From a virus (taxonomy: Duplodnaviria; Caudoviricetes): a stretch of 64,000 nt of DNA. The notes under the pieces are model-generated. The model was not told the DNA's origin, did not search any database, and worked only from the letters and a program-made list of their open reading frames with translations. A program made the translations under genes and the position numbers. The stretch covers positions 1 to 64,000 of the IMG/VR virus record IMGVR_UViG_3300010998_000005; one strand, written 5' to 3'. Every line of letters starts with the position of its first letter. Position 1 is the stretch's first letter. Positions 2,917 through 32,433 of this stretch are shown piece by piece.

Positions 2917-3822
2917 TTAGAATAGTGTAGGTTGCTTTTGTTCTATCACATCTTTTAGTAAGTTCTTTCTTGTATAATACTTAGATTGCATTGTTGCAAA
3001 CATATCGGGTTGTATATTCTTTTCAAGATTGCTGCACGCATCAATATAGAAACGCTTGCTGACTTCCATGCCATAGGCTTTGCGTCCAAGTGATGCAGCA
3101 GCCACCAATGTACTACCACTTCCTGCGCAAGGGTCGATAACCACATCATCAGGGTCGGTAAACAATTCTACCAATCGTTTCAACAAAGGTATAGGCTTTT
3201 GTGTTTCATGGGTGCGTTCCATTCCTAAATCCCTTACCCAATCCATACAATTAAAAACCATTTGACCGTTGTTATTGAACTTTGGCAGTTTGTCACGATA
3301 GAGTATCAATCCATATTCGCAATTACCCACCACACGCATATTTGCTTTAAGCACTTGCGCTGAATAGTTTTTGCGGAATACAAGGTTTATGTAATGCTTG
3401 AAGCCGTAACGTTTCGCAAGTTCTATAAGGTAGAACTGTTGCATAAACTCGCAAAAGACTATCATACAAGGTGCGCTTGTTGAAGTTCTGCCCCCCCCAT
3501 TTTCTTTTGGTTCGGGTTTAAGCATTTGTGAAGCAAAGTGCATAAATTCAGCAGGCTTGAAATTCTCGTCAGTTACAAAGAATGTTTCGCCTGCTTTGTC
3601 GCTTTCTCCGTTCTTGTTATTGCCACCGATATACCAAGAAGGATTGCTACCATAAGCCTTGTCACCTAACGAATAAGGTATATCCGTAAGGATAAGTTGC
3701 GCTTTTGGTATGCCATAACGTTTGAAGTCTTGAAAAGAACTATTGAATAGTCCGACACGATTGTTGAGCATTCTAAATTCTGGATTCTCGACAGTTGCTA
3801 CGTCTTTTGTTGTCAGTTTCAT
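2917..3822 (-). CDS. DNA amino-methyltransferase (N6-A/N4-C, beta class)
   Basis: Motif IV LILTDIPY precedes motif I DPCAGSGST; HETQKP motif; C-terminus QPTLF. Confidence 0.9.
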   Translation of the reverse strand: MKLTTKDVATVENPEFRMLNNRVGLFNSSFQDFKRYGIPKAQLILTDIPYSLGDKAYGSNPSWYIGGNNKNGESDKAGETFFVTDENFKPAEFMHFASQMLKPEPKENGGGRTSTSAPCMIVFCEFMQQFYLIELAKRYGFKHYINLVFRKNYSAQVLKANMRVVGNCEYGLILYRDKLPKFNNNGQMVFNCMDWVRDLGMERTHETQKPIPLLKRLVELFTDPDDVVIDPCAGSGSTLVAAASLGRKAYGMEVSKRFYIDACSNLEKNIQPDMFATMQSKYYTRKNLLKDVIEQKQPTLF

Positions 3823-17368: not shown

Positions 17369-18229
17369 ATGACAGAGGATTTAGAGAAAAAGGTTGAGCG
17401 TGCGATAAAACTCATTCAGAGTGCGAGTAAGATTGCTGCTGCTAATGGTTGTCCTGAAATAGAGGTGTGTTATTCAGGCGGCAAAGATTCCGATGTTATC
17501 TTGGAGTTGACGAAGATGGCTGGTGTGCCTTATAGGGCTATTTACAAGAATACTGGCATAGACCCTAATGGAACTATCAGACACGCAAAAGACAACAACG
17601 TAGAGATAATGCCGCCGAAGAAGAAGTTTATAGACCTGCTTGCTTATTATGGTATGCCTTCACGCAGAAACAGGTATTGCTGTCAGCATTTGAAAGAGTA
17701 CAAGATACTTGACTATGCTATATTGGGTATAAGAAGGGATGAAAGCGTGGCAAGGAGGGAACGATACAAGGAGCCAGAGCAATGTCGGGAATATAGCAAG
17801 AAAGAGAAATGTCGGCAATACTTTCCTATACTTGATTGGACGAAAGATGACGTGTTGGGGTTTATCAAAGAACGTGGTATCAAGTTGCATCCTATATACT
17901 ACAAGGACAATGGGGAGATAGACGTGGAACGCAGATGCGGCTGCATGGGATGCCCTATGGCTTCATACAAAAAGCGTCTTGAGGAGTTCAAGAAGTACCC
18001 CAATATGGTTAAACTTTATGTACGTGGTGGGGGGCAATACCTTGACAATCACAGCCTTAGCAAGATTGCGAAACTATGCAAAGATGGTTATCAGTTCTTT
18101 TGCTTTGACGTTTTTTGCGAACGCTCAAACATTAGATTCCAACAAAAGTTTGGTGCAAACCTCTTTGATGACGGCATAGACTGCAAGAAATTCTTGGAGG
18201 ACTATTTCAAGATAAAGTTCAAGGATTAA
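17369..18229 (+). CDS. Phosphoadenosine phosphosulfate (PAPS) reductase-family protein
   Basis: PP-loop YSGGKDS, CCQHLKE, GIRRDES..R, PILDWT, RCGCMGCP. Confidence 0.88.
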   Translation: MTEDLEKKVERAIKLIQSASKIAAANGCPEIEVCYSGGKDSDVILELTKMAGVPYRAIYKNTGIDPNGTIRHAKDNNVEIMPPKKKFIDLLAYYGMPSRRNRYCCQHLKEYKILDYAILGIRRDESVARRERYKEPEQCREYSKKEKCRQYFPILDWTKDDVLGFIKERGIKLHPIYYKDNGEIDVERRCGCMGCPMASYKKRLEEFKKYPNMVKLYVRGGGQYLDNHSLSKIAKLCKDGYQFFCFDVFCERSNIRFQQKFGANLFDDGIDCKKFLEDYFKIKFKD

Positions 18230-21037: not shown

Positions 21038-21880
21038 ATGGAATATACGAAAGATAACCCACTTAAAGTAATAACCCTTTGCAGTGGTTATGATAGTCAG
21101 TGCCTCGCCCTGAATAGATTAAAAGGGTGTTATCCCGATTTCGACTATGAATTAGTTGCTTGGTCTGAGTTTGACCCCGAAAGCAAAGCATCGCTGGAGA
21201 AGCAGCCTGCGGTTATAGCACATAATGCCTTATTCCCACAATGGAAAGACCGCAATCTTGGCGATATGACTAAAATAGAGTGGAATAAACTAAATCTGCA
21301 ATGCGACTTATTGTTTTATAGTACTCCATGCCAGAGTATTTCCGCGGCAGGACTGCAACACGGATTTGTTGAGAGTAGCGGTACACGTTCAAGCATTATC
21401 TGGAACGTGCGTGATGCAGTAATAGCACTAAAACCAAAATTCCTATGCCTTGAAAATGTTAAAGCAATGGTGTCAGGCAAGTTCGTGGGAATGTTTAATC
21501 TGTGGCAGAGAGAGTTGGAAAAACTCGGCTATGCTAACTTTGCACAAGTCCTTAATTCTAAAGACTACGGCGTACCACAAAACAGAGAGCGTATATTCCT
21601 CGTTTCAATAAGGATTGACAATGAGAATGATTACCCTAAGTATTATTTCCCACAGCCTTTCCGTTTGGAAAAGAAACTCAAAGATGTGTTAGAGGACAAT
21701 GTGGACGAGAAGTATTACCTGAGTGATGAAAGGGTGCAGGGTTTAATGGCAAGTACGGAGAAAGAGCAGGAGCGTGGAAATGGCTTTGCGTGGAATCCGA
21801 CAGATGGCAGCGGTGTTGCTTGCACCATTCAGACGACACAGAACAGGAAAACGGATAATTACTTGTTTGATGAACAATAA
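21038..21880 (+). CDS. DNA cytosine-C5 methyltransferase, N-terminal catalytic half (motifs I-VIII plus first TRD-like unit)
   Basis: TLCSGYD (I), YSTPCQSIS (IV), LENV (VI), YGVPQNRERIF (VIII); stops at NYLFDEQ without motifs IX-X. Confidence 0.92.
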   Translation: MEYTKDNPLKVITLCSGYDSQCLALNRLKGCYPDFDYELVAWSEFDPESKASLEKQPAVIAHNALFPQWKDRNLGDMTKIEWNKLNLQCDLLFYSTPCQSISAAGLQHGFVESSGTRSSIIWNVRDAVIALKPKFLCLENVKAMVSGKFVGMFNLWQRELEKLGYANFAQVLNSKDYGVPQNRERIFLVSIRIDNENDYPKYYFPQPFRLEKKLKDVLEDNVDEKYYLSDERVQGLMASTEKEQERGNGFAWNPTDGSGVACTIQTTQNRKTDNYLFDEQ

Positions 21881-22065
21881 AATTACCCCCCCAGAGGTGG
21901 ATATGCGAACAGCGGATACCGACACCGCAGACAAAGGATGGTTGTTGTCCTGCGTTGACAGCGACATACGATTATGCGAGTTTTGCGAATATGTTTAGCG
22001 TGGGTCATTATCCAAGGATGGGTGTAATAGAGATAGGTCATTATGAAGAAGTTTATACCGATTAA
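21870..22065 (+). CDS. TRD-like cassette 1, interrupted at a C7 tract (21886-21892)
   Basis: With C6 it reads MNNKITPQRWICEQRIPTPQTKDGCCPALTATYDYASFANMFSVGHYPRMGVIEIGHYEEVYTD. Confidence 0.7.
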
Positions 22066-22228
22066 CACGGACGCTGATGGTAATGCAAAGACTATTTTGG
22101 CTTGTTGTTATAAATTTGGTTTTTCAGCCTTGTTGAATTGGGAAGGTTCAACAATGACTTGCGTAGGTGTGGTACAAGATGAAGAAACTGACCGAAGGAA
22201 TCCGAATGAAGAAGATACTTGTTTATGA
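22043..22228 (+). CDS. TRD-like cassette 2 (intact)
   Basis: MKKFIPINTDADGNAKTILACCYKFGFSALLNWEGSTMTCVGVVQDEE... Confidence 0.75.
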   Translation: MKKFIPINTDADGNAKTILACCYKFGFSALLNWEGSTMTCVGVVQDEETDRRNPNEEDTCL

Positions 22229-22414
22229 TGATTATAATTCTGTTCTACCCCCCCCAATAAGCAGGGGGTTATAGGAACGATAACGCCACAATTCGGCAAC
22301 TCTACATTAAGAAATGGCTGGAAAATAATAGAAGTATATGAAGAAGAAAGCGACAGGCGGTGTGCGCCTTGCGAAGATGATACACAAGGTAAACAAGCCT
22401 TATTTGTGGATTGA
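22179..22414 (+). CDS. TRD-like cassette 3, interrupted at a C8 tract (22248-22255)
   Basis: With C9 it reads ...ILVYDDYNSVLPPPNKQGVIGTITPQFGNSTLRNGWKIIEVYEEE... Confidence 0.7.
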
Positions 22415-22508
22415 CACTTACAACCAATGTGTAAGTGACATTGCCGGAACGATAAAAGCGAGAATAAATAGTAATAATATGTATTATGTAAGTGTACCAA
22501 ATGGCTAA
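22338..22508 (+). CDS. TRD-like cassette 4 (intact, 56 aa)
   Basis: MKKKATGGVRLAKMIHKVNKPYLWIDTYNQCVSDIAGTIKARINSNNMYYVSVPNG. Confidence 0.75.
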   Translation: MKKKATGGVRLAKMIHKVNKPYLWIDTYNQCVSDIAGTIKARINSNNMYYVSVPNG

Positions 22509-22689
22509 ACAAGCATACGGACTCGGACGCTCTCGCAGTAGCAGTGGGAAAGGTGATATTGTAAATTGGCATCTTAATCCTTACGTCAACTGCATCCACA
22601 CTCTTGTAGGTGGAGGGTGGAAAACGATGGAAGTCTTAATTGTAGAAGTTTATGATGATACTGACTTGTGCGATAAGAGGAAGGAGTGA
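22501..22689 (+). CDS. TRD-like cassette 5 (intact)
   Basis: MAKQAYGLGRSRSSSGKGDIVNWHLNPYVNCIHTLVGGGWKTMEVLIVEVYDD... Confidence 0.75.
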   Translation: MAKQAYGLGRSRSSSGKGDIVNWHLNPYVNCIHTLVGGGWKTMEVLIVEVYDDTDLCDKRKE

Positions 22690-22822
22690 TGGCGAGTGGC
22701 ATTCGTCCGACCATAGCCAGAGGTTAGAAGTCGGCGGTGACATAGCTAATTCGATAACGTCTGTAAGCAAGAACAGTTTAATACTGATAGTTAATGAAGA
22801 TAGTAAAAGCGATAGGTCGTGA
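22652..22822 (+). CDS. TRD-like cassette 6 (intact, 56 aa)
   Basis: MMILTCAIRGRSDGEWHSSDHSQRLEVGGDIANSITSVSKNSLILIVNEDSKSDRS. Confidence 0.75.
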   Translation: MMILTCAIRGRSDGEWHSSDHSQRLEVGGDIANSITSVSKNSLILIVNEDSKSDRS

Positions 22823-22976
22823 AAGGACGGAAGAGGAAAAGAGACGTAGGCATTTGTATGGTGACAAAGGGGCAAGGTTCTCTAAAGGTAAGCAGTTATG
22901 CCTACTTGGTGATATAATAGGAGCGATAACGACTTTATGCACAAAAGACAACTTGATATGCGAGATAGAATTATAA
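22794..22976 (+). CDS. TRD-like cassette 7 (intact)
   Basis: MKIVKAIGRERTEEEKRRRHLYGDKG...GDIIGAITTLCTKDNLICEIEL. Confidence 0.75.
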   Translation: MKIVKAIGRERTEEEKRRRHLYGDKGARFSKGKQLCLLGDIIGAITTLCTKDNLICEIEL

Positions 22977-23138
22977 AATTAGGGTACTATATAAAGCCCA
23001 ACCGAAAGAATCCGAGCAAGGGTGTGGTGTATAGCATTGAAGGCATTGCACCTTGTATGTGCGATTTTTCTGGGGGGGGGTAATTTAGTGCCGACAATAG
23101 TAGTAAAAGATGAACGGGAAAGTAAAGAAACTGTTTAA
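22958..23138 (+). CDS. TRD-like cassette 8, interrupted at a G9 tract (23072-23080)
   Basis: With G8 it reads MRDRIIKLGYYIKPNRKNPSKGVVYSIEGIAPCMCDFSGGGNLVPTIVVKDERESKETV; with G9 a TAA follows immediately. Confidence 0.72.
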
Positions 23139-23252
23139 CATCTACGGCTTTGATGGCGGCAACTTCGCAGGGAATGTGTACGACCCTGAATATATCAGTC
23201 CTGCCCTCAGCACAATGGGGGGGGTAATCAGCAACCTTTAATAATTACAGAT
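23110..23252 (+). CDS. TRD-like cassette 9, interrupted at a G8 tract (23217-23224)
   Basis: With G9 it reads MNGKVKKLFNIYGFDGGNFAGNVYDPEYISPALSTMGGGNQQPLIITD and fuses in frame to the C-terminal half. Confidence 0.75.
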
Positions 23253-23525
23253 ATGGAACAGAAACAAAAAATCACCTTGCCTAAAGAATTAGAGGGCAAG
23301 AAGTTTAGAATCAGAAAACTTACTCCGAGAGAATGCGGACGTTTGCAAGATGTGGATGATAAAGACATTGACATCATCGAGAACGCAGGTTTGAGTAATT
23401 CAGCAATGTATAAATTGTACGGGAATAGTATAACTTTATCGGTCTTATTTTTCATTTTTGAAGAATTATTTATACCTTTGCACCCGAAAAGGGGCAAAGA
23501 GCCTATTCAATTATTATTATTTTGA
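23253..23525 (+). CDS. DNA cytosine-C5 methyltransferase, C-terminal half (motifs IX-X)
   Basis: IRKLTPRECGRLQDV (IX), MYKLYGNSI (X); ends IQLLLF. Confidence 0.9.
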   Translation: MEQKQKITLPKELEGKKFRIRKLTPRECGRLQDVDDKDIDIIENAGLSNSAMYKLYGNSITLSVLFFIFEELFIPLHPKRGKEPIQLLLF

Positions 23526-23526
23526 T

Positions 23527-24822
23527 ATGAGAAAGGAAAAAGTAATTCAGATGGATTTAGATGGAAACTACATTTCCGTCTTTGAAAGTGCAGTTGCTGC
23601 TTCTAAAGCATTAGGAGTTGGTTGTGGTAACATAAGTTTATGTTGTCGTGGACTTGCGGACAGAGTAAAAAATTATCGTTTTAGGTATGTTGATGATGTA
23701 CTAAACGAAAAAGCCGTGAAAATTCGACAAGTACGACACAACAAAGCGTCAGATAACCACAAGAAGGCATGGATTCCGAAAAGGAGAAAGGTTTATCAAT
23801 TCTCTTTAGATGCAGTATTGATTGCTTGCTATAAAAACGCAGATATAGCATCAAGTAAAAACGGAATCCCAAAGCATCTAATATTCCAATGCTGTAATGG
23901 GACAATCATCCAAAGCGGAGGGTATATATGGAGTTATAATAACAAAGTAGAATCTGTATTGAAGAACGATATTCCAACTGAACAAGGAGAAGAGTGGCGT
24001 GATGTAGTCGGGTACGAAGGTCTTTATATGGTAAGTTCTTTTGGTCGAGTTTGGAGTTTAAGGAGGAGAACAGAAAAAGTCGGGAATTTGATAGGTGGAT
24101 TTATGCTTACAAACCATATAGACAATAGGGGGAGAACGTCCAACACGCTAACAACAAAAAATGGGGAAAAAGTTAATGCAGTAACCGCTCGTCTTGTTGT
24201 AATGTCTTTTATTCCTAATCCAGACAACCTTCCTCAAGTAAACCATAAGGATGAAAATCCATTAAACAACCATGTGGATAATCTTGAATGGTGTACGGCT
24301 AAATATAATTGCAACTATGGAACAAGGATTGAAAGGATTAAAGAGAAGCAAAACATACCAATACTCCAATACACACTGAATGGTGAATTTGTTGCAGAAT
24401 ACGCTTCAATGCACATTGCCGCGGATGCTATAAATGCAGATGCAGGACACATTTGTGATTGTTGCTTGGGAAATAGGTCTTATGCCTATGGTTTCTTTTG
24501 GCGTTACAAAGATGATGAAATGTATAATTCTGCCAAAGTAAGGCTGCAAGATAAAATTTCCGCAAGTAAAAAATCGAGAGCAGACAAGTTTACGGCGAGA
24601 GCATTAAATGTAGTACAACTTGATATGAACGGTAAATATATACAGACACATCAGTCAAGTAGGCTTGCAGCGGAAAGAGTTGGAAGTTTCCGACCAATGA
24701 TTATAAATTGTTGCAATGGGAAAATATCAAATGTTAAAGGCTACAAGTTTATGTACGAGCGAGATTTCCGCAAGATGTTCATAGAAACGGAAAACGAAAG
24801 CCAACAACTAAGTTTATTCTGA
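23527..24822 (+). CDS. Free-standing HNH homing endonuclease with NUMOD4 and repeated NUMOD1-like domains
   Basis: EEWRDVVGYEGLYMVSSFGRV (NUMOD4); VNHKDENPLNNHVDNLEWCT (HNH); repeated V.Q..LDG..I..F/Y.S...A modules; ends QQLSLF. Confidence 0.9.
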   Translation: MRKEKVIQMDLDGNYISVFESAVAASKALGVGCGNISLCCRGLADRVKNYRFRYVDDVLNEKAVKIRQVRHNKASDNHKKAWIPKRRKVYQFSLDAVLIACYKNADIASSKNGIPKHLIFQCCNGTIIQSGGYIWSYNNKVESVLKNDIPTEQGEEWRDVVGYEGLYMVSSFGRVWSLRRRTEKVGNLIGGFMLTNHIDNRGRTSNTLTTKNGEKVNAVTARLVVMSFIPNPDNLPQVNHKDENPLNNHVDNLEWCTAKYNCNYGTRIERIKEKQNIPILQYTLNGEFVAEYASMHIAADAINADAGHICDCCLGNRSYAYGFFWRYKDDEMYNSAKVRLQDKISASKKSRADKFTARALNVVQLDMNGKYIQTHQSSRLAAERVGSFRPMIINCCNGKISNVKGYKFMYERDFRKMFIETENESQQLSLF

Positions 24823-24827
24823 TATAA

Positions 24828-25637
24828 ATGGGAGAAAGTATGATTGAACTTGACCATATCTATTGTGAAGATTGTTTAATCGGCATGAAGCGGATTCCTG
24901 ACGGGAGCGTGGATGCGGTGATTTGCGATTTGCCGTATGGGACAACCGCCTGCGCCTGGGACTCCGTGATACCCTTCGACAAGTTGTGGGAGCAGTACCG
25001 ACGTATCTGCAAAACAAATGCTCCGATAGTGCTGTTTGGCATAGAGCCATTTACGGCGGCTCTCATTATGTCGAATGTAAAGGAGTTTAGGGAGAAATTA
25101 ACATGGGAAAAACATAAACCGAGTAATATTGGCAATGCAAAGTACATGCACCTAAAATATTCGGAAGACATTGTAGTATTCTCCCGTGGAAAATGCACTT
25201 TTAATCCTCAAATGCAACCAAGAATAAGCGACAGAGTAAGAGAGGCGCAAAAAGGGAACAGTAAGCAATGGCGTAGTAATCGCAAGGAAACTGGCGAAGT
25301 GTCTTTTGCAACGCAATATGAGCCGCGAGATTGGAACTCATTTGATGCTGATAAGAAATACCCAGGAAATGTATTTTATTTCCCAGCCGTTGTTTCTAAT
25401 TCCCACGAGAAATGCGACCACCCCACCCAGAAGCCCGTTGACCTGCTGCGCTATCTCGTGCTGACCTACACCAACGAGGGCGACACGGTGCTCGACAACT
25501 GCATGGGCAGCGGCACGACGGCCATCGCCTGTATCAAGGAAAAGCGGCACTTTTTAGGATTCGAGCTGAATGAAGATTATTACAAGAAAGCAATCAAGAG
25601 AATAGAAGTTGAAAAATCTCAATTAACGCTATTTTGA
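24828..25637 (+). CDS. DNA amino-methyltransferase (N6-A/N4-C, beta class)
   Basis: DAVICDLPYG (IV), HPTQKP, VLDNCMGSGTT (I); ends QLTLF. Confidence 0.92.
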   Translation: MGESMIELDHIYCEDCLIGMKRIPDGSVDAVICDLPYGTTACAWDSVIPFDKLWEQYRRICKTNAPIVLFGIEPFTAALIMSNVKEFREKLTWEKHKPSNIGNAKYMHLKYSEDIVVFSRGKCTFNPQMQPRISDRVREAQKGNSKQWRSNRKETGEVSFATQYEPRDWNSFDADKKYPGNVFYFPAVVSNSHEKCDHPTQKPVDLLRYLVLTYTNEGDTVLDNCMGSGTTAIACIKEKRHFLGFELNEDYYKKAIKRIEVEKSQLTLF

Positions 25638-25638
25638 C

Positions 25639-26202
25639 ATGAAAGAAGAATGGAAAGAAATAGATGGTCATAGTGGGTACATGGTATCTAACTATGGAAA
25701 CATAAAAAGCCTGTCATTTAACAAGACTGGTGTAGAGAAAAAACTTACACCATGCGTTGATAAGAAAGGCTACCTTTTTGTGTGTCTTCACGGTAAACAA
25801 TTAAGGGTACATAGACTTGTGGCATTAGCATTTATACCAAAAGTTAATGGAAAAGAACTAATCAACCACATCAATGAGGATAAACAGAATAATGCCGTAT
25901 GGAATTTAGAGTGGTGTACCGCATCTTATAATCTTAATTACAATGGTAATAGAGAAAGGATTTCCAAGAAGCACAAAAAGAAAGTGTATGCTTATAAAGA
26001 TAAAGAGTTATTTCAATCTTTCGACAGTATAACAGAAGCCGCTAAAGCGTTCGGTGTTTCTATCAATAATATATCTTCGTGTTTACACGGAAGAAAGAAA
26101 CAAGCATGTGGGTGTGAATGGTCATTCGAGTTGAACAAGGAATACTACGACAAAGCCATGAAGCGCATCGACAACGAACGCCGACAACTGACATTATTTT
26201 AA
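25639..26202 (+). CDS. Free-standing NUMOD4-HNH endonuclease
   Basis: EEWKEIDGHSGYMVSNYGNIKS; RVHRLVALAFI; INHINEDKQNNAVWNLEWCT; ends QLTLF. Confidence 0.9.
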   Translation: MKEEWKEIDGHSGYMVSNYGNIKSLSFNKTGVEKKLTPCVDKKGYLFVCLHGKQLRVHRLVALAFIPKVNGKELINHINEDKQNNAVWNLEWCTASYNLNYNGNRERISKKHKKKVYAYKDKELFQSFDSITEAAKAFGVSINNISSCLHGRKKQACGCEWSFELNKEYYDKAMKRIDNERRQLTLF

Positions 26203-30602: not shown

Positions 30603-31035
30603 ATGAAACCAGAAAAAAGCAAAGAAGTTCTTTGTGGACTTCGACAAGGCAATGAGCGACGATGAAACTTTCTTCGCACTATGGAACAAAGACAGTGACA
30701 AGGAAAACACCACCTTGGTTGTTGCACCTAATACGGTGGAAAGCCAAGCGCAGGCAGCAGCCATATTGGCAAAGCGCATTTACGAAGGAATGAACGGTGA
30801 GGGTAACGAAAACGATAAGGTGCTTGCCGATATAATCGTGTTCGCAGTCAAGAAAGCATTTGAATGGCAAGAGGAAGATGATGAAGAAGAATACGATGAA
30901 GATGAAGACTACAAAGAAGAAGAATGTGCCGATTGTTCCGATATGCGCACTTGCAACGAAAAGAAAGCAATAGCATATCGCAAGAAACACCATATACCAA
31001 GACCAAAGAAGAAATCAAACAAAAAAATAAGTTAA
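30603..31035 (+). CDS. Acidic/Cys hypothetical protein with an apparent frameshift at A6 (30613-30618)
   Basis: ATG 30603 with typical leader joins the 30634 frame only if the A-run is 5 long (MKPEKAKKFFVDFDK...). Confidence 0.55.
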
Positions 31036-31248: not shown

Positions 31249-31290
31249 CAAAGTTAAATGTTTAACGAAAACGAAAAAGAAAAAGAAAGT

Positions 31291-32433
31291 ATGAAAATTC
31301 AATTAAACGTAAATGACATCCTTACGCCGCTTGTAAACGCAACAAGCGTGGTAGGCACAAAGAACTCTATCGCAATCCTTTCTTGCGTAATGATTGAGGT
31401 AGGAAAGAACAACACCCTTATAATTACGGCAAGCGATGGCTCGCAATGGGTTTCCACTAAGGCGACAATCATAGAAACGGATATTGCCGAGGGAACAAAG
31501 TTCTGCATCGAAGCAAAGGACTTAAAGCAAGCTCTGTCTAACCTTTCAGGGCGTATCGTAGAACTTAACTTTGATGAAACAGCGCACACGATGACTTGTG
31601 CTTTCGCCAATGGTAAGTTTACGTTGCCATACCTTAGTGCAGATGAATACCCACAAAGCACACCAATAGAGGGTGATGACAAGGTGGAATACATCTTAGA
31701 CGCACCAAAGATTGCAAGAATGATTGCGCAAACCAACTACGCAATGGCTAACGACCCATTGAGAATGGTTATGAACGGTGCGTACTTTGATTTCCATAAG
31801 GATGACCTTTCCATTGTGGCAAGTGACGGACATAAACTCGCACTTTGCCAAGATAAGACCATAAAGAACGAAGATGGCGAGGACAAATCCTTTATCCTTA
31901 TGGCTAAGTCTGCAAGCATCCTATCTACGTTAATAGACAAAGAGGAAGGACAAATCAAGATTGCTTTCAACGGTAATAATGTTTGCATCAACAACCAGAG
32001 CTTCAGACTTACGGCAAAACTCATAGAGGGCAGGTTTCCCAACTATAATGCCGTGATACCAAAGGATAGCGACAAAAGGGTTAAGGTGAACAAGGATGAT
32101 ATACTTAGCGCAATGAAGCGCATACTGCCTATGAGTAGTACAACGACCGAGATTGTAAAGTTTATCTTTTCACCAAACCTGCTTACTTTGTTCTGCGAGG
32201 ATGTAGATTACAGCAAGTCTGCAAGTGAAACAATGCAAAGCGACTACCCTAATCAAGCGGACTTTACCATAGGCTTTAAGGGTAGCGCAGTCGTACAATC
32301 TTTGCAAGCCATAGAGGGTGACGAAGTTGTGATACGAATGACCGAAAGCAGCAGGGCAGCGATATTCACAAGCGCAACAACCGATGAAACGTATTCACAC
32401 ATAGCATTGATAATGCCCATATTGGTAGATTAA
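31291..32433 (+). CDS. dnaN: DNA polymerase III beta sliding clamp homolog
   Basis: About 380 aa; ADEYP, ASDGHKLA, LIEGRFPNYNAVIP, C-terminal LIMPI. Confidence 0.93.
   Translation: MKIQLNVNDILTPLVNATSVVGTKNSIAILSCVMIEVGKNNTLIITASDGSQWVSTKATIIETDIAEGTKFCIEAKDLKQALSNLSGRIVELNFDETAHTMTCAFANGKFTLPYLSADEYPQSTPIEGDDKVEYILDAPKIARMIAQTNYAMANDPLRMVMNGAYFDFHKDDLSIVASDGHKLALCQDKTIKNEDGEDKSFILMAKSASILSTLIDKEEGQIKIAFNGNNVCINNQSFRLTAKLIEGRFPNYNAVIPKDSDKRVKVNKDDILSAMKRILPMSSTTTEIVKFIFSPNLLTLFCEDVDYSKSASETMQSDYPNQADFTIGFKGSAVVQSLQAIEGDEVVIRMTESSRAAIFTSATTDETYSHIALIMPILVD

Follow-up and report, generated by a model that had tools for sequence, protein, structure and literature searches.

The question raised by this locus is why a phage should keep its cytosine-5 DNA methyltransferase (C5-MTase) in two pieces, with a row of nine mini open reading frames (ORFs) in shifting frames between them. 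The locus lies at positions 21038 to 23525 of a 64-kb window (by which we mean the whole stretch of DNA that was analysed, positions 1 to 64,000 of the IMG/VR record IMGVR_UViG_3300010998_000005, a virus of the Caudoviricetes), part of a complete genome of 78 kb with direct terminal repeats. Each mini-ORF looks like a target recognition domain (TRD). On the whole we consider it probable that the region encodes a multi-chain, multispecific cytosine-5 anti-restriction DNA methyltransferase of the phage, with TRDs acting in trans and homopolymer tracts as phase switches. The architecture itself and the selection that maintains it were observed directly in relatives, and we regard them as close to certain.

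The two halves of the enzyme are encoded on the forward strand by separate ORFs, as found in a Pfam search. The alpha chain (21038..21880) matched profile positions 2-227 of PF00145 at 21038-21877 (E = 3e-42). Its translation contains TPCQSIS, with the catalytic Cys of the PCQ motif, LENVKAM (ENV) and PQNRERIF (QNRER), so that motifs I-VIII are present, followed by a resident TRD-like unit at the C-terminus. The beta-prime chain (23253..23525) matched profile positions 265-322 at 23253-23522 (E = 1.4e-7) and carries motif IX (TPRE..RLQ) and motif X (GNS) behind its own conserved Met, which lies about 10-15 residues ahead of LP.EL.GKKFRIRKL in 28 of 34 C-halves of relatives. Matches to PF00145 in the 78-kb genome were confined to these two ORFs, which form its sole C5-MTase, and any 5-methylcytosine (m5C) activity of the phage therefore needs both alpha and the C-half. 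Orthologues of alpha comprised 57 distinct ORFs, 37 of which were aligned with that of the window (alignment A3) and were 63-81% identical to it.

Three-frame translation of the 1.4 kb between the halves gave nine mini-ORFs, cassettes 1 to 9 (c1 to c9), with ATG codons at 21870, 22043, 22179, 22338, 22501, 22652, 22794, 22937 and 23110, each upstream of the stop of the preceding unit. With the frame expressed as start coordinate modulo 3, alpha is read in frame 2 and the cassettes in frames 0 changing to 1 (c1), 2 (c2), 0 changing to 2 (c3), 0 (c4), 1 (c5), 2 (c6), 0 (c7), 2 changing to 0 (c8) and 1 changing to 0 (c9), the last being the frame of the C-half. The shift is +1 at eight of the nine junctions; c7 to c8 alone is −1. 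The original prediction had placed motifs I-VIII at 21038-21880 and motifs IX-X at 23253-23525, with nine mini-ORFs between them and an overlapping ATG in the +1 frame at eight of nine junctions, and all of this held in the PF00145 matches and the translations. Counting the resident unit, ten TRD-like units lie between motifs VIII and IX, a tandem arrangement known from enzymes of the SPR type. Those enzymes are single polypeptides, whereas stops or frame changes occur here at every junction and are kept in relatives. Neither Pfam (E up to 1) nor PHROGs (E up to 0.01) returned a match for any of the eight cassette peptides searched.

Scans with the alpha protein returned 12 viral loci, 7 loci in metagenome-assembled genomes (MAGs) and 80 metagenome loci, with alpha chains 59-81% identical. 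The architecture was thus seen in 100 loci from many metagenomes, 99 of them relatives (numbered with the prefix L). A nucleotide search of deposited phages gave only a 60-nt match at motif level to Clostridioides phage methylases and no close cultured relative. The MAG bins with matches were mostly Bacteroidales, Bacteroidaceae and Paludibacteraceae, and because of this the host is probably a member of the Bacteroidota of rumen or gut. The same layout recurred in all loci whose sequence was long enough: alpha ends at a stop, mini-ORFs follow in changing frames, and the final unit is in most cases fused to motifs IX-X. This last TRD is in frame with IX-X in L001, L005 and L061, and out of frame in the window record. 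L061 is the shortest form, with alpha and one TRD-beta chain; other relatives carry up to about 14 cassettes. Orthologues of each cassette of the window were found in 11-39 loci. The relatives share about 26 mini-ORF families in differing orders, a mosaic of content and order that was obtained with stricter clustering, since single linkage merged families through overlapping or fused ORFs; the stricter clustering still joins c6 with c7.

Selection acts on the cassettes in their own frames. Per-site differences at codon positions 1/2/3 were 0.34/0.24/0.63 for the cassettes (193 locus hits), to be compared with 0.42/0.27/0.68 for the C-half. Queries made from wrong frames of the same DNA found only 7 and 26 loci, and there the variable position moved to the true third position. 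Of 115 orthologous cassette N-termini (non-redundant), 109 (95%) have an in-frame ATG at −6 to +4 codons, against a baseline of 21% inside cassettes. Whether the junction breaks would be conserved or random in relatives had been named beforehand as decisive: over the 100 loci they are conserved, the layout is under selection, and the tracts are conserved as well as variable in length. Together with the conserved start codons, these comparisons support the combinatorial anti-restriction methylase of the original prediction.

The cassettes can also be found in other covalent contexts. A search with cassette 5 against 1.84 billion representatives gave 60 proteins, nearly all of 44-124 aa. One of them, P0058, is a single-chain methylase of 445 aa whose residues 12-212 and 334-428 align to residues 20-209 and 223-315 of M.HhaI. 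Its c5-type match (residues 251-296) falls inside a 120-residue insert between motifs VIII and IX, and by reading of the sequence this chain appears to hold four TRDs. Read in the same way, P0040 would be four fused TRDs without a core behind a separate alpha ORF, and P0051 and P0053 two or three fused TRDs. No match in the PDB resulted from a sequence query with the TRD8 and C-half that are naturally fused in L001, and P0058 was needed to anchor the region to M.HhaI. The best E-value in the cassette 5 search belonged to P0001 (3093 aa, 20 matched stretches), probably a repetitive protein. In twelve loci the core is permuted within one ORF (IX-X-I-VIII, with or without TRD0, the resident unit), none of them with a C-half match downstream, and free TRD mini-ORFs follow the permuted core in all seven of these loci that were inspected. 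As no C-half lies downstream, the mini-ORFs of permuted loci cannot link to motif IX. From the in-chain match of P0058 and the fused and permuted forms, we conclude that the cassettes are genuine variable-region modules, tolerated fused or free; their covalent linkage is evolutionarily fluid.

A structural model was obtained for a complex of three chains (alpha, beta-prime and cassette 5), for which separate alignments were supplied, the kind of assembly of N-half, C-half and cassette that had been suggested for modelling at the outset. The ipSAE score was 0.76 (0.72, 0.76 and 0.80 in the runs) versus 0.11 for the best control; the mark used was reached by 58 of 80 solved complexes and by 2 of 110 mismatched pairs, calibration counts that hold only roughly for three chains with custom alignments. 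The runs shared at least 63% of contacts, with a partner pLDDT (predicted local distance difference test) of at least 59. In the model, cassette 5 residues 44-53 (VLIVEVYDD) run antiparallel to residues 17-23 of beta-prime (KFRIRKL), and residues 22-33 (WHLNPYVNCIHT) contact alpha residues 180-184 (PQNRE, motif VIII). The KKFRIRKLTPRE strand of beta-prime is thereby the predicted docking site for the C-terminal strands of the cassettes. The predicted pairing would explain both the end strand common to the cassettes and the conserved head of beta.

The following mechanism would accommodate these observations. Each gene of 45-65 aa would be translated from its own ATG, probably coupled to the overlapping upstream ORF, and would yield one TRD. 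The free TRD would complete the enzyme in trans, its C-terminal strand (h-h-h-E-h-Y-E) pairing with the KKFRIRKL strand ahead of motif IX and its recognition loop resting against motif VIII, so that one core would be programmable with many specificities. Hypermutable poly-G/C tracts in some cassettes, here c1, c3, c8 and c9, would switch single specificities on or off, and in the last cassette the tract would decide whether the module is tethered to beta. Such an enzyme may protect the phage DNA from many host restriction systems, while tract switching may hedge against methyl-dependent restriction. From the sequences we infer separate translation, assembly in trans, m5C activity, the specificities and switching in the population of this phage; for the TRDs as trans-acting subunits we see slightly better than even chances.

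Several points weigh against this mechanism. The model speaks for compatibility of the fold and not for binding, and its good score may reflect memory of single-chain C5-MTase structures such as M.HhaI and M.HaeIII. A free TRD of about 55 aa would lack the tether that raises the local concentration in single-chain multispecific enzymes, and no C5-MTase is known to work in three parts. The strong +1 bias and the conserved junction motif described below could hint at a recoding signal. Finally, consensus errors at G8-G10 runs may cause individual out-of-frame states.

The tracts themselves lie on the forward strand of the window in four cassettes, all of them out of frame as written. The C7 tract of cassette 1 (21886-21892) would link the ATG to the TRD frame as C6 or C9, the C8 tract of cassette 3 (22248-22255) would be restored as C9, the G9 tract of cassette 8 (23072-23080) as G8, and the G8 tract of cassette 9 (23217-23224), as G9, would fuse this cassette to motifs IX-X. 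In each case an intact orthologue reads through: L003 for c1 (FTPPRKWICEE), L012 for c3 (TIPPPEKMDAVGAITTQFG, with an in-frame C8), L001 for c8 (DYSLGGNLVPTIIV, fused in frame to the C-half) and L029 for c9 (TITTMGGGNREPLIV, G9 in frame). The breaks at C7, C8, G9 and G8 with one-base repairs of opposite sign (−1, +1, −1, +1), which the original prediction had listed, agree with these orthologues, and the frame reading bears out that one extra G at 23217-23224 fuses cassette 9 to the C-half. These are frame-setting homopolymer tracts inside coding sequence, as in phase-variable genes with simple sequence repeats. In relatives, the orthologous c1 tract is C6-C9 (10 loci) with in-frame and out-of-frame states both present, and L002, L007, L012 and L045 read out of frame at the TMGGG site of c9, whereas L029, with G9, reads in frame. 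Only five G/C runs of at least 7 occur in the 64-kb window, four of them inside the 1.4-kb array, a concentration beyond chance. The fifth, a G8 on the coding strand at 3491-3498, reads NGGG in frame within an N6/N4 DNA methylase gene (PF01555, 2917-3822, reverse strand; its protein ends in QPTLF), so that all five fall in methylase genes. The four out-of-frame states of the record may be the real majority, one of several states of the population, or consensus errors.

Such tracts are strongly enriched in the arrays of relatives. In 44 complete arrays we counted 145 G/C runs of at least 7 in 66 kb (2.19/kb) versus 8 in 247 kb of flanks (0.032/kb), a 68-fold difference, and the lengths peaked at G8 (45) and G9 (47), not in the shortest class. 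Flanking frames could be assigned for 85 tracts, of which 55 keep the frame and 30 break it (17 with one sign, 13 with the other); this out-of-frame share of 35% is a lower bound, as the automatic call labels some out-of-frame tracts as in frame (L012 5727, L040 1843, L045 3681). Length variation was seen directly in three near-identical pairs of contigs from different samples. A single G in a G9 run is all that separates L047 from L049 (2623 nt without a mismatch) and L097 from L098 (2766 nt without a mismatch), and a 1-nt change of a G tract is the only indel between L077 and L078, next to 6 mismatches in 2994 nt. The length of a tract predicts the frame state at orthologous sites. For c5, the three loci with G9 are in frame and the four with G8 or G7 are not; for c7, the G8 of L097 is out of frame and the G9 of L098 in frame. 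Among relatives, the counterpart of TRD0 frequently carries a gating run of G8-G9; L012, L031 and L040 have it in frame, L002 and L029 out of frame. This pattern is the signature of contingency loci, and we consider it highly likely that the tracts are hypermutable switches in this phage family.

Some tracts may do more than switch a module on or off. A type-B TRD (IVGxxWxSxQNGxVYDPxGIAPCIC) lacks an ATG of its own in at least nine loci (among them L003:5914-6171, L002:5879-6097, L055, L082 and L034) and can be reached only via an alternative frame of a G tract in the preceding type-A cassette (ANFxRGGG, then TEQQxxLSC...). A different frame at the same tract yields a complete type-A module (YGATAVxVxE), and the frame of the TEQQxxLSC linker is open in at least nine loci. 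The arrangement suggests a tract-driven selector between two modules. Similarly, the c1-type cassettes have a conserved C6-C9 tract right after the ATG, and a Cys-rich mini-ORF family of 16 members (MRRTK..CNHGD.RIC.VCQYNDDCP) occurs at array positions. It stands alone in several loci, and in some its frame is the −1 frame of a c1-type TRD (dual coding). Members of the family lie at L002:6084-6218, L012:6592-6714 and L003:6199-6327, and the cassette 1 ORF of the window as written (21870-21998) reads a degenerate copy. From these arrangements we infer that tracts could serve as frame selectors beyond on and off.

Could the mini-ORFs be an artefact of conventional reading, the true product being one long multispecific chain made by programmed frameshifting or hopping at every junction? 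Among 258 junctions, 177 (69%) place the following ATG in the +1 frame and 51 (20%) in the +2 frame; in the remaining 30 (12%) it shares the frame of the upstream unit, beyond a stop. The overlap had a median of 14 nt (range −39 to +77) and the context was (T/G)ATGA(A/G), owing to which the upstream chain ends in h-E-h-(Y/D)-E-E and the next one starts with M-K-K. The recurrence of the same +1 shift next to a conserved motif would suit a single chain, and P0058 is a single-chain relative with the same TRD type. However, the opposite shift would be needed at 20% of the junctions, an in-frame stop separates the cassettes at 12%, and the distance to the stop of the zero frame varies, as the range of overlaps shows. 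No slippery heptamer or shift-prone codon pair was seen at the junctions; a shift site has no need of the ATG kept at 95% of cassette starts; the permuted loci have nothing downstream to join; and the full-length product would be nearly nil after nine serial shifts. Offsets and stop distances that vary, stops in frame between cassettes and an ATG that is kept all lead us to favour separate initiation and to hold serial programmed frameshifting very improbable. The original prediction had named both plug-in peptides and junction frameshifting as the source of the specificities; the former fits the data better, the latter less well. Recoding of stop codons was dropped, as frames change and not merely stops. 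Decay of a once continuous multispecific methyltransferase would also leave many frame breaks, and four cassettes of the record are out of frame, but the same breaks are kept in about 100 relatives, each frame is under purifying selection and the start codons are conserved, which together refute decay for the junction breaks. The genes are moreover the only C5-MTase pair of the complete 78-kb genome. We give next to no credence to a pseudogene.

The internal cassettes could also form a silent library, use being restricted to the units joined to alpha or beta, with recombination at the junctions moving cassettes into these expressed positions as in pilin or vls systems. The mosaic content and order of some 26 families, the conserved junction sequences and the terminal position of the core-fused cassettes would all be in line with such a scheme. 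Start codons kept at 95% of N-termini would, however, be needless in silent cassettes, selection covers complete ORFs including the N-termini, and the tract switches owned by many cassettes would be pointless without translation. In addition, near-identical contigs vary in tract length and not in cassette order, and a free cassette docks on the core in the model. We consider a silent library quite improbable. A narrower proposal concerns the four tract breaks, which may be consensus or sequencing errors; c1, c3, c8 and c9 would then be intact, with c9 fused to the C-half, and the rest of the architecture would stand. That a single base repairs each break speaks for it. Yet about a third or more of the 85 tracts are out of frame, in both directions and in many independent assemblies. 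The long ORFs that are listed between 16.5 and 32 kb were not seen to be interrupted at any A/T run, the suspect site at 30613 falls between two ORFs, and the long G/C runs keep to methylase genes, with the one at 3491-3498 in frame. Errors are thus an unlikely explanation of the four breaks; the sequencing errors cautioned against at the outset can be dismissed as a cause of the junction breaks and of the tracts as such, and the caveat stands for the four tract lengths of this record.

The resident unit TRD0 (about 21776..21868, forward strand as are all units described here) reads GNGFAWNPTDGSGVACTIQTTQNRKTDNYLF in translation and closes alpha without a tract. Cassette 1 (21870..22065) is a c1-type TRD (...WICEQRIPTPQTKDGCCPALTATYDY...GVIEIGHYEE) with third-position bias in the TRD frame over 19 loci. 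As written, its ORF 21870-21998 follows an alternative Cys-rich-like frame, and the TRD frame needs a changed length of the C tract. Cassette 2 (22043..22228; MKKFIPINTDADGNAKTILACCYKFG...) is intact and without tract, with orthologues in 22 loci and differences of 0.41/0.27/0.68 at codon positions 1/2/3. Cassette 3 (22179..22414) reads MKK..ILVYDDYNSVLPPP and then NKQGVIGTITPQFGNSTLRNGWKIIEVYEE; it is broken at C8 and as written stops at 22274. Cassette 4 (22338..22508; MKKKATGGVRLAKM..YLWIDTYNQ..AGTIKARI..YYVSV) is intact, with 17 loci, a median amino acid identity of 64% and third-position bias. Cassette 5 (22501..22689; ..YGLGRSRS..NPYVNCIHTLVGGGWKTMEVLIVEVYDD) is intact and has orthologues in 39 loci; R10 and R12 are invariant in alignment A1. 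Its Gly-Gly-Gly is written GGT GGA GGG in the window, a non-slippery form, versus G7-G9 runs in relatives. Cassette 6 (22652..22822; ..CAIRGRSDGEWHSSDHSQRLEVGGDIANSITSV..LILIVNED) is intact (23 loci, third-position bias), as is cassette 7 (22794..22976; ..GRERTEEEKRRRHLYGDKGARFSKGKQLCLLGDIIGAITTL..LICEIE; 35 loci, median identity 70%), which has no tract here and a G7-G10 tract at this site in relatives. Cassette 8 (22937..23138) reads ..KLGYYIKPNRKNPSKGVVYSIEGIAPCMCDFSGGG and then NLVPTIVVKDE, is broken at G9 and as written stops at 23083. Cassette 9 (23110..23252), with ..LFNIYGFDGGNFAGNVYDPEYISPALSTMGG and then GNQQPLIITD, is broken at G8 and as written stops at 23241; the remainder after the tract runs in frame straight into motifs IX-X.

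The C-halves end in QLxLF, with Q86, L87, L89 and F90 nearly invariant in 21 sequences (alignment A2), and the phage encodes a DnaN-like sliding clamp of its own at 31258-32433 (three Pfam beta-clamp domains). The tail of beta-prime, QLLLF (23511-23525), resembles a clamp-binding peptide; the C-half tail of the window (..FIFEELFIPLHPKRGKEPIQLLLF) differs from the ..FRKMFIETxxESQQLTLF of relatives. Tail and clamp together suggest a clamp-tethered methylation that would be coupled to replication. A fuller picture, which we put forward tentatively and below an even chance, is that of a core that takes its specificity from exchangeable free subunits of about 50 aa, with several tracts selecting frames (A versus A-prime-B; TRD versus Cys-rich peptide) and the complex possibly tethered to the clamp via QLxLF.

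Some neighbouring features were noted in passing. Two NUMOD/HNH homing-endonuclease-like genes, at 23527-24822 and 25639-26202, directly follow the C5 C-half and an N6/N4 methylase gene (24828-25637), respectively. A protein with a PAPS-reductase domain (3'-phosphoadenosine 5'-phosphosulfate; PF01507) is encoded at 17369-18229, a few genes upstream of the methylase cluster, and may belong to another DNA-modification pathway. In some relatives (L011:4701-5100 and L012:4701-5100) an intein-like insert splits the alpha ORF; it ends in ..HSYIVNGCxxKN, immediately before the catalytic Cys of motif IV (CQSIS).

The system shares traits with several known ones. The multispecific C5-MTases of Bacillus phages (M.SPRI, M.Phi3TI, M.Rho11sI and M.H2I, from the Trautner laboratory) are single polypeptides with 3-5 TRDs. 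In both cases several modules of about 40-60 aa follow one another between motifs VIII and IX of a phage-borne C5-MTase core; each is thought to confer one specificity, and the presumed role is anti-restriction. Here, however, every module has a separate ORF that starts at an ATG and is shifted in frame, the core comes in two parts, and many modules contain homopolymer tracts. Phase-variable methyltransferases include the Mod phasevarions of Haemophilus and Neisseria and the restriction-modification genes of Helicobacter and Campylobacter with their poly-G/C tracts. They resemble the present genes in having G/C tracts of 7-10 in methylase coding sequence, with both frame states and with lengths that differ between near-identical genomes (here relatives). 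They vary a whole enzyme or one specificity domain in a cell lineage, whereas here several tracts gate the modules of one phage enzyme, and some appear to select alternative downstream frames. Switching of the C-terminus has been described for a phase-variable methylase of H. canadensis (PMC2823697).

M.AquI (alpha/beta) consists of two chains with one specificity, and fragment complementation is reported for M.BspRI/M.BsuRI and M.SssI (PMC5944983, refs 45-47; PMC3404938). Its core is split, as here, between motif VIII and the variable region into adjacent ORFs, its halves reconstitute, and L061 with alpha and TRD-beta has exactly this form. Unlike in M.AquI, extra TRD-only chains lie between the halves, and the conserved internal start of beta would give a chain devoid of a TRD. 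Circular permutation is known for M.BssHII, M.Alw26I, M2.Eco31I, M.Esp3I and M2.BsaI (PMC5944983). The twelve relatives with IX-X ahead of I-VIII in one ORF are of this kind, the window itself not being permuted, but the chain of the phage relatives opens between the TRDs and motif IX and their TRDs are free ORFs. As a working analogy, a catalytic core that draws its specificity from a separate, exchangeable polypeptide recalls Type I HsdS; hsdM and hsdS are translationally coupled, overlapping genes (PMC3510504). Type I enzymes nevertheless have an unrelated fold and chemistry (N6-adenine), hold TRDs of about 150 aa in a single S subunit, and show no homology to the present system. A literature search whose coverage left most subscription journals outside found split, permuted and phase-variable methylases and no published arrays of free TRD mini-genes. 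Neither that search nor the systems above offered individually started recognition-module genes, in arrays and with tract switches per module, in phages; the enzyme family (PF00145) is ordinary.

Should the mini-proteins indeed act in trans, the phage enzyme would be the first C5-MTase whose specificity subunits can be exchanged. For enzymology it would mean that a recognition domain can be a separate chain of 50 residues that docks by one beta-strand, and tool developers would gain a kit, ready-made by nature, of at least about 20 compact recognition modules with which cytosine methylation could be programmed. In annotation, the arrays are currently called as strings of hypothetical proteins. 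For the phages of rumen and gut, it would suggest how one gene cluster can cover many host restriction systems, and how slippage at the tracts may give rise to offspring that differ in their methylation pattern and so hedge against methyl-dependent restriction.

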